Source: Candidatus Helarchaeota ASGARD archaeon Hel_GB_B (lineage in GTDB: Archaea; Asgardarchaeota; Lokiarchaeia; Helarchaeales; HEL-GB-B). Taken from it: a stretch of DNA of 32,000 bases. This document shows, piece after piece, positions 21,303 through 23,331 of this stretch (positions within the stretch are counted from its first letter, which is position 1; each line of letters begins with the position of its first letter). The DNA lies in assembly GCA_005191425.1 (NCBI GenBank), contig SUPR01000002.1:1-32000 (forward strand), read 5' to 3'. Made by a program: the position numbers and the translations under genes. Under the pieces are notes generated by a model. That model was given only the letters and a program-made list of their open reading frames with translations. It had not been told where the DNA came from and did not search any database.

Positions 21303-21443
21303 CTATCGGGCTTTTATTTTCTTGACTACAGGCGGCCTTATTTTATAAAGAATTCTATAACCACATTGGGGACATTTTATTCCTGGGAGTGAATTCATGT
21401 CCATTGCATTAATTTCTTTCTTACATTCACCGCACTCATACAT
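21303..21443 (-). CDS. rpoP: DNA-directed RNA polymerase subunit P (Rpo12)
   Basis: Manual translation MYECGECKKEINAMDMNSLPGIKCPQCGYRILYKIRPPVVKKIKAR (46 aa), matching the YxCxxC..CPxCGxRILxKxRP signature. SD GAGGT upstream. Not in the ORF track. Confidence 0.95.
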   Translation of the reverse strand: MYECGECKKEINAMDMNSLPGIKCPQCGYRILYKIRPPVVKKIKAR

Positions 21444-21543: not shown

Positions 21544-21861
21544 TTATTGAACAATAATATTTTTTCTATCATAACCTATTTTCAAAAGAACAGACTTAGC
21601 TTTTGACCTTTGGTCACCCTGTAATTCAATTGCATCACCTTTAACGGTGCCACCACATGCGCATTTAGATTTTAATTTATTTGTTAAATTATTTAAATCG
21701 GTATCTTGATCCAACCCTTCAATGATTGTGACTTTTTTACCATAACGCCGTTTTACCATCCGAATTTTGATTACAGAGTCTTCTTTGTATAATGTTTGAC
21801 ATATACAGATTTCTTTTGGTAATGAACACTTCGGACAAATTCCACTTTTTTCTAAATCTAT
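21544..21861 (-). CDS. sui1: Translation initiation factor aIF1 (SUI1), probably initiated at non-canonical ATA
   Basis: Core RRYGKKVTIIEG..LKSKCACGGTVKGDAIELQGD. The frame extends upstream of ATG 21759 through ICPKCSLPKEICIC to TAA at 21874-21876 with no ATG/GTG/TTG. Gene identity is confident; the exact start is inferred. Confidence 0.9.
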   Translation of the reverse strand: MDLEKSGICPKCSLPKEICICQTLYKEDSVIKIRMVKRRYGKKVTIIEGLDQDTDLNNLTNKLKSKCACGGTVKGDAIELQGDQRSKAKSVLLKIGYDRKNIIVQ

Positions 21862-21872
21862 ACAATCACCAT
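21858..21872 (-). other. 4-codon upstream ORF (ATG GTG ATT GTA TAG) whose stop overlaps the putative aIF1 start
   Basis: Read directly from the sequence. Whether it is translated is unknown. Confidence 0.4.
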
Positions 21873-22164
21873 TTTAAATTAAGATTATTAAATTAAAAAT
21901 TGTTTTGAGATTATTTTTTAATTACATATTAATTTATATTATTAATAATTTTAAATCTTTTTACTATTTTTATACATTCAGCTTCAATGTAAATATTGGA
22001 AATTTAGAACTTTATCGGTATAAAAGGGATTAATTATTAAAAAAAATATGTTTAACCCAACATATAGTAGAATTTGTTTTTTATTTTATTCAATTATTTT
22101 AATCTCAGTCAATTTAAGACTGTAAAATGATTAAAAGATATTATAAAGGATTAAACTATTAAAA

Positions 22165-23331
22165 TCATTTGAAAAATTTAGTCTTATGGCCCATTCCACT
22201 TGCAATTTTATGATCAGGGGTGATTTTAACGTCTAATGGTGTTTCATGGTCAATATCTAATATATATCCTTCAAATGCCTCTTCTTCAGAGATGCCTAAA
22301 TTCTCTAATGTACATTTTGACCCATTAGGCTCTTCTCTTATAATATTATCATCCTTGTCGAGCAATTTTTTATAATGATCAGGAATTTTAGTATTTAAAG
22401 AAATTGCAGGTATTGGTATCCCTTCTTTCCACTGAGATAGATATATTAAATCATAAATTTCAGGTAGGTCACTTTTTACCCATTCCAATGCCCTGTCTTC
22501 AATTGTAGATGTAATTAGTTTGTGAGAAGAAGTTAACCCTGCTAAGACCGTCTGAAATTTTGGTCGTGGCATATATACGATGCTACTAAATAATGGAGGA
22601 ATAGGATAATATAGAAAATAATAGTCAGGTAATTTGTACTTGAACTTTGTGTTCAGACCATCATAGATATTTCCAAGCATTTCATAATTTGAAAGTTCTG
22701 AAAACATATTATACATTGCTGAAGACCAACAAACACAAACCCAATACCTTGAGTTTTTCCATTCAGGGCGCCTTTCATTACGGATGTCCATTAAGATGTC
22801 CATAAGGACATGAGCTGATTTTGATAAATCCTTGACTTTGGCTGGTATTTCTCTTATTTTCCATCCATATTTCATGTGTCTTCTGTCTAAAAGTTCATCG
22901 TCTAAACCAGCAAGATACCAATCAGAAGGGACTCCAGATTCCATATGACCATTAAATACAAATAAAATTTCTGAACTAAAATCATCAATTATTGTGAAAC
23001 TTACGTCTGTCGAGTCTCCATACATTAATTTATTCGTCCCAACTTGTAGGTCAGACCTAACTGAAATTATATGAGGAACGGTATATAAGACGCTTTTCTC
23101 AGCCTCTTCTTGGCTCATCTCTCCGGATAAGATCTTTTTTCCAGTAAATATCATATTATTCCAACGATCTGCAGTAATATCATATTGTACTTGCCTAAAT
23201 TTCCCCTGAAAACTCTTCATATATTCAAGCCCGAATTTTCTAAAGATTTTATATACATTTCTTGACAATGGCAAATAATATTTAGTCCGAGAATCATCAG
23301 GTATTTCTCCAAATGAATGTAAACCAGACAT
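22165..23331 (-). CDS. Hypothetical protein, 388 aa, no family recognised
   Basis: Long ORF with SD-like GGAGT upstream and normal globular composition. No motif recognised. Confidence 0.75.
   Translation of the reverse strand: MSGLHSFGEIPDDSRTKYYLPLSRNVYKIFRKFGLEYMKSFQGKFRQVQYDITADRWNNMIFTGKKILSGEMSQEEAEKSVLYTVPHIISVRSDLQVGTNKLMYGDSTDVSFTIIDDFSSEILFVFNGHMESGVPSDWYLAGLDDELLDRRHMKYGWKIREIPAKVKDLSKSAHVLMDILMDIRNERRPEWKNSRYWVCVCWSSAMYNMFSELSNYEMLGNIYDGLNTKFKYKLPDYYFLYYPIPPLFSSIVYMPRPKFQTVLAGLTSSHKLITSTIEDRALEWVKSDLPEIYDLIYLSQWKEGIPIPAISLNTKIPDHYKKLLDKDDNIIREEPNGSKCTLENLGISEEEAFEGYILDIDHETPLDVKITPDHKIASGMGHKTKFFK

Follow-up and report, generated by a model that had tools for sequence, protein, structure and literature searches.

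How translation of the gene for initiation factor aIF1 begins in Candidatus Helarchaeota Hel_GB_B, and why it would begin in such a way, are the questions raised by this locus. The window, which is the whole stretch of DNA that was analysed, comprises 32,000 nucleotides, and aIF1 is encoded on its minus strand in a single open frame that runs from a TAA at 21876-21874 to a TAA at 21546-21544. The elements of this frame are as follows.

21544..21861, minus strand: aIF1/SUI1 coding sequence read from ATA, 105 residues and a TAA stop (21546-21544)
21874..21876, minus strand: in-frame TAA that closes the aIF1 frame upstream
21799..21837, minus strand: N-terminal zinc knuckle of aIF1, CPKC-x8-CIC, which aligns to ICPRCGLPKELCVC of 4MO0
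21757..21759, minus strand: first canonical in-frame ATG of aIF1, internal and not the start, residue 35 counted from ATA

The product is an aIF1/SUI1 protein. It matches the SUI1 alpha-beta domain, Pfam PF01253, with an E value of 3.2e-21 over residues 28-97 counted from ATA, covering positions 2-76 of the 77 in the profile. Among solved structures, the closest chain is that of M. jannaschii aIF1 (4MO0; E 3.6e-31, residues 8-103), with an alignment that begins at ICP; the same chain was also used in 5JB3 and 5JBH. Chains of eIF1 match the Helarchaeote protein at E values of about 1e-8. The archaeal CxxC...CxC knuckle is present, and its four cysteines are invariant across alignment A1 (n = 13 sequences). 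The gene is single-copy in the source genome (G000, one match), and two copies are found in some genomes of family f4.

Thirteen codons lead from the upstream TAA up to and including the first cysteine: AAT GGT GAT TGT ATA GAT TTA GAA AAA AGT GGA ATT TGT, the last at 21837-21835. No ATG, GTG or TTG lies in the aIF1 frame between the upstream TAA and the CPKC...CIC knuckle. The ATG at 21759 lies past the knuckle, 7 residues into the Pfam SUI1 match and within the first strand of the SUI1 fold; the methionine that it encodes is confined to genus g1, with I, V, E or T found there in other relatives. Because aIF1 has no canonical start before the knuckle and its first ATG falls within the SUI1 domain, the start must be 5′ of that ATG. 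The initial annotation had placed the start upstream of the first AUG, with a zinc ribbon in frame, and had seen no AUG, GUG or UUG between the TAA and this ribbon; the frame and the knuckle bear out the first statement, and a codon-by-codon reading the second. The candidate start site consists of two elements.

21859..21861, minus strand: ATA (AUA), proposed initiation codon of aIF1, the sole near-cognate codon with a Shine-Dalgarno (SD) sequence in the 13 codons from TAA to the first Cys
21865..21870, minus strand: SD sequence GGTGAT of aIF1, followed by a 3-nt spacer (TGT) and then ATA

Since the 16S rRNAs of two relatives from the same order as the Helarchaeote, from which the anti-SD was taken, end in ...GGAUCACCUCCU, complementary GGUGAU is a 6-nt SD sequence; a 16S rRNA gene was not found in the source assembly. 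Identical motif and spacing precede a TTG in L004 (GGTGAT GAA TTG), and two neighbouring genes have a geometry close to that of aIF1, psmB with GGTGG, 4 nt and ATG, and the NUDIX gene with GGTGA, 5 nt and ATG. Both of these spacings had been quoted correctly in the initial annotation. The start site of P. abyssi aEF1A, GGAGGUGAU-UUAA-AUG (PMC6237735), is likewise close to the aIF1 arrangement of GGTGAT and 3 nt. The predicted RNA fold of the aIF1 leader and start (21800-21920) shows no sign of a regulatory structure (z = -0.53). We hold with high confidence that aIF1 is translated from the AUA at 21861-21859 by SD placement, giving 105 residues with an intact zinc knuckle. The choice of the ATA behind GGTGA as the best start, made from this one sequence at the outset, thus stands: none of the other near-cognate codons between the TAA and the knuckle has an SD, and in relatives, too, the start is non-AUG.

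An ATG-to-ATA assembly error had been a concern from the outset. Contigs of three public runs, each from a different study, cover 21700-21960 and differ only at 21769 and 21907, the former difference being synonymous (ATC to ATT on the minus strand). The 5′ regions of aIF1 in two NCBI MAGs, GCA_054386495.1 and GCA_054387555.1, are identical to the source contig, and a 105-residue gene call beginning at ATA is present in both. The same-genus genome G001 retains GGTGATTGTATAGAT exactly, and the sequence 5′ of GGTGATTGTATAGAT has diverged. Conservation between G001 and the source begins exactly at the GGTGAT SD, and synonymous and conservative changes are mixed 3′ of ATA. Because the three run assemblies, the two MAGs and G001 agree, ATA at 21861-21859 is the true sequence and not an assembly error. 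The genes that flank aIF1 also recur elsewhere.

21303..21443, minus strand: rpoP, RNA polymerase subunit P, a Zn ribbon (Pfam PF03604), 100 nt downstream of aIF1
22165-23331, minus strand: 388-residue ORF directly upstream of aIF1, its position conserved in two NCBI MAGs

The rpoP gene has its own start, GAGGT followed by 9 nt and ATG, and the 388-residue ORF at 22165-23331 has no Pfam match. The order 388-residue gene, aIF1, rpoP and NUDIX is the same in L248 and L249.

Whether the non-AUG start is conserved can be read from aIF1 5′ regions aligned across the class, which takes in Helarchaeales and the Lokiarchaeia-type families. Of 33 loci, 25 lack a canonical in-frame aIF1 start; the homologous position is occupied by ATT, ATC, ATA or TTG, in no locus by ATG. 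Seven genomes make up the Helarchaeales comparison. Family f1, which includes the source genome and G001, starts aIF1 with ATA; family f3 (L006, L007) has ATA-GAR-ATH-TGY behind GGAGA, again with no canonical aIF1 start; and family f2 has TTG-GAK, once behind the identical GGTGAT and 3 nt. The source ATA aligns with the TTG-GAN and ATA-GAR of these other Helarchaeales. The Lokiarchaeia-type families have ATT at the homologous site, replaced by ATC in two genomes and by ATA in L029; AAA GAN follows this codon, and GTGA or GAGGTGA precedes it by 8-9 nt. Just 1-3 codons 5′ of the Lokiarchaeia-type start, there is often an in-frame stop. In several loci of the class, a stop precedes ATH by 1-2 codons (TAG AGT ATT; TAA GTT ATA), so that no alternative start is left in them. 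An ordinary internal isoleucine codon would equally lack a third-position G, and the argument rests on these nearby upstream stops and on the position of the SD.

Two aIF1 paralogues occur in genomes that include G009, G011, G020, G026 and G039, all of the Lokiarchaeia type. In such genomes, one aIF1 type has ATT straight after stops, and the other has an in-frame GTG within GAGGTGA, 8 nt before ATT AAA GAN. A split SD-like motif, AGG..GTGA, hinted at by the f4 aIF1 leaders, was also considered and was rejected, as it precedes only 2 of the 1566 ATG starts of the source genome.

Across the class, the identity of the aIF1 start has changed several times, among ATT, ATC, ATA and TTG, and never to ATG. 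The weak start looks selected, because the class never has ATG, which is one substitution away, while relatives of two control genes discussed below, FolD and ThrRS, do. The mechanism proposed here would account for such a codon as follows. The 30S subunit would be placed on AUA by the GGUGAU 3 nt upstream, and the initiator Met-tRNA would pair with a third-position mismatch. aIF1 destabilises near-cognate initiation complexes; initiation on its own AUA would be suppressed when aIF1 is high and permitted when aIF1 is low, and the near-cognate start would be kept weak by selection. In S. solfataricus assays, aIF1 selects against mRNAs with AUU or another non-AUG start (PMC4705826, PMC6237735). 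Near-cognate initiation does occur in archaea, since ribosome profiling of H. volcanii yielded putative alternative initiation sites of which about 30% are near-cognate (PMC7261190).

Control genes of the source genome bear on the step from a weak start to feedback. The genes for aIF1A and for aIF2 alpha, beta and gamma have ATG at the expected N-termini. A count of long open frames after GGTGA is uninformative, as the motif also occurs inside genes, and tests on pre-start frames were used instead. In these frames, ATH behind a strong SD is observed 31 times genome-wide against about 13 expected (~2.4-fold; p = 5e-4 for ATC). In the source genome, SD-positioned ATA, ATT or ATC starts also occur in at least six further conserved genes. 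In the six listed here, Pfam domains begin at residues 2-20 after ATH, and the first ATG, GTG or TTG is 30-160 codons further in.

G000:C45:9630-10475: FolD (L178)
G000:C126:19676-21538: ThrRS (L179)
G000:C99:29220-30218: Cbf5/TruB (L182)
G000:C178:1810-2418, minus strand: Arf-like GTPase (L180)
G000:C96:28583-29356: N6/N4 DNA methylase (L181)
G000:C19:13025-15322: GH2 enzyme (L187)

Because the source genome tolerates ATH in these genes, a near-cognate start alone is not a mark of autoregulation, and the step from non-AUG to autoregulated is weakened. The genes and the enrichment in pre-start frames speak for a rival account, in which the AUA of aIF1 is real but acts as a constitutive attenuator, or is neutral in a lineage that tolerates ATH behind strong SDs, with no aIF1-dependent feedback. 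What speaks against this account is that the other ATH starts are sporadic where they could be compared. FolD uses ATA and ThrRS uses ATT in the source genome, but in relatives ATG is found at 29/29 loci for FolD and at 25/29 for ThrRS, the same-genus genome being among the latter. This contrast with aIF1 is inflated by kinship, as the counts come from related genomes that are not independent. With that reservation, the weak start is conserved in aIF1 and not in FolD or ThrRS. Moreover, aIF1 retains a non-AUG start throughout the class, such starts reappear in other lineages, and aIF1 is itself the factor that rejects near-cognate codons. Attenuation or neutrality without feedback is accordingly rated unlikely, though it keeps an appreciable share of the probability. 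A stand-alone ThrRS-editing-domain paralogue in a family f4 genome (L194, G008:C130) has ATA against the ATG of its relatives.

Start-fidelity autoregulation of aIF1 fits the conservation contrast with the control genes, which suggests it as a reasonable reading of the sequences. Negative feedback would be the most likely reason for the weak start, a view to which we give even weight for and against. The combined explanation, an AUA start with a selected weak codon and negative feedback on aIF1, is considered moderately likely.

Three further alternatives concern the position of the start and the way in which ribosomes reach it. Initiation could take place at the ATT at 21840-21838, just 5′ of the first cysteine, which is likewise near-cognate; an Ile codon adjoins the first Cys of aIF1 in nearly all relatives. 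This ATT, however, has no SD at a workable distance, and its isoleucine is a conserved residue, as 4MO0 has EICP and its own Met 3 codons earlier. The conserved SD fronts ATA instead, and opposite ATA-GAT in the alignment, the sister families have TTG-GAT and ATA-GAG. A start at ATT is therefore very improbable.

The second alternative involves an upstream reading frame.

21858..21872, minus strand: out-of-frame mini-ORF ATG GTG ATT GTA TAG, present in the source contig and two near-identical MAGs

The initial annotation had suggested that this 4-codon uORF is coupled to aIF1, with terminating ribosomes reinitiating at the overlapping AUA (AUAG). The mini-ORF and the overlap do exist at 21872-21858; the coupling finds no such backing. 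In the same-genus genome G001, the ATG of the mini-ORF reads ACG, and in the ATA-start Helarchaeales L006 and L007, there is no start codon in its frame, so that the uORF is not conserved as a coupled element would be expected to be; relatives with a TTG or ATT start are arranged differently here. No SD-like sequence lies 5′ of the ATG at 21872, where only A and T are found, and the GTG that remains lies within the SD of aIF1. The AUAG overlap itself is automatic, because ATA precedes the GAN codon of a conserved second residue, Asp or Glu, and TAG is forced by ATA and GAT. The mini-ORF looks incidental to the aIF1 start, and reinitiation from it is highly unlikely. In the AUA-start mechanism favoured here, it would play no necessary part.

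Lastly, the start could be canonical after all: the protein would begin at ATG 21759 (71 residues), or the ATA would stem from a sequencing error, or from a frameshift out of the frame of the upstream ATG. Public gene calls that use the internal Met and yield shortened 71-residue aIF1 products in several relatives agree with this alternative, but it is refuted for practical purposes: that Met is not conserved and falls within the first SUI1 strand, the zinc knuckle is invariant, independent assemblies concur on ATA, GTA TAG gives no room for slippage, and G001 lacks the upstream ATG. Programmed frameshifting of the prfB or dnaX type was rejected for aIF1 because GTA TAG has no re-pairing option. 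A +1 shift on an A-run 3′ of the GTG in the f4 leaders was rejected as well, as three genomes have TGA TAA directly upstream and no A-run.

Public annotation of aIF1 is inconsistent as a result of such calls: the gene is called here as 105 residues from ATA, and in close relatives it is cut to 62-92 residues. Gene finders limited to ATG, GTG and TTG shorten aIF1 to this range with loss of the zinc knuckle, and they also shorten FolD, ThrRS, Cbf5 and other genes of the source genome.

Outside the class, the start of aIF1 varies, though most of the archaea sampled have ATG: it lies 1-4 codons before the knuckle in methanococci, in most DPANN and in roughly half of the Asgard families sampled. 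Family f7, with Wukong- and Hod-like records, has a CTG start, as do many genomes of f10, where CTG alternates with GTG. ATA starts are found in f12, f18 and L152, whose sister L151 has ATG, and in two DPANN records, L053 and L055. Scattered as they are over f7, f10, f12, f18, L152 and DPANN, these CTG and ATA codons indicate that near-cognate aIF1 starts arose several times. Because about half of the outside Asgard families have a plain ATG, any aIF1 feedback is not universal. That near-cognate initiation of aIF1 (AUA, AUU, AUC, CUG or UUG) would be a selected, repeatedly evolved autoregulatory circuit in Archaea is put forward tentatively, with somewhat more doubt than confidence.

Individual records show these starts in their local context. 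The f10 loci L127-L139 have [G/C]TG TCN GAY GA behind CAGGAG, with GTG or CTG at one position, and in several f10 genomes, a stop lies one codon 5′ of the CTG. The two DPANN records, archaeon GW2011_AR5 and an Aenigmatarchaeota MAG, have GAGGTGAT followed by 5 nt and ATA GCA GTT TGT; their only canonical codon is a TTG within the SD, so that aIF1 probably starts at ATA in both. L108 has ATG GCA GTT TGT. One aIF1 match, G134:C183:3819-4109, holds a single in-frame TAG, which recoding, an assembly error or decay to a pseudogene could explain.

In the literature searched, and in the initiation reviews PMC7531240 and PMC6412873, archaeal aIF1 is nowhere said to have a non-AUG start or to regulate itself. 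A conserved AUH or UUG start in the aIF1 of the archaea closest to eukaryotes would supply the missing archaeal case beside infC and eIF1. If the feedback is real, the level of aIF1 would also tune the small set of ATH-start genes in the Helarchaeote, FolD, ThrRS, Cbf5 and others.

The Helarchaeote aIF1 shares the zinc knuckle and the SUI1 fold with the M. jannaschii and P. abyssi proteins (4MO0, 5JB3, 5JBH). It differs from methanococcal aIF1 (L036-L048), in which ATG lies 3 codons before the first Cys, in having ATA and 4 extra N-terminal residues. The bacterial infC gene, which encodes IF3, reportedly has an AUU start and is autoregulated at the level of translation (Butler, Springer and Grunberg-Manago are said to have described this in 1987). 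As in infC, the gene of a factor that rejects non-canonical starts begins here at AUH behind an SD, and this is conserved over a large clade. The folds of IF3 and aIF1, however, are unrelated, and the aIF1 codon is variously AUA, AUU, AUC or UUG or, in other Asgard families, CUG. In addition, feedback has been demonstrated experimentally for infC, whereas we infer it for aIF1. Eukaryotic eIF1 (SUI1), according to what Ivanov et al. reportedly found in 2010, is autoregulated through an AUG in poor context. aIF1 is homologous to eIF1 (PF01253), and the two would share the logic of a start site that is disfavoured by its own product. They differ in the means, as in eukaryotes the AUG is reached by scanning and lies in a weak Kozak context, whereas the Helarchaeote aIF1 start is an SD-placed near-cognate codon. 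If this reading is correct, synthesis of the start-codon fidelity factor would in all three domains of life be governed by a start site that is disfavoured by this very factor.
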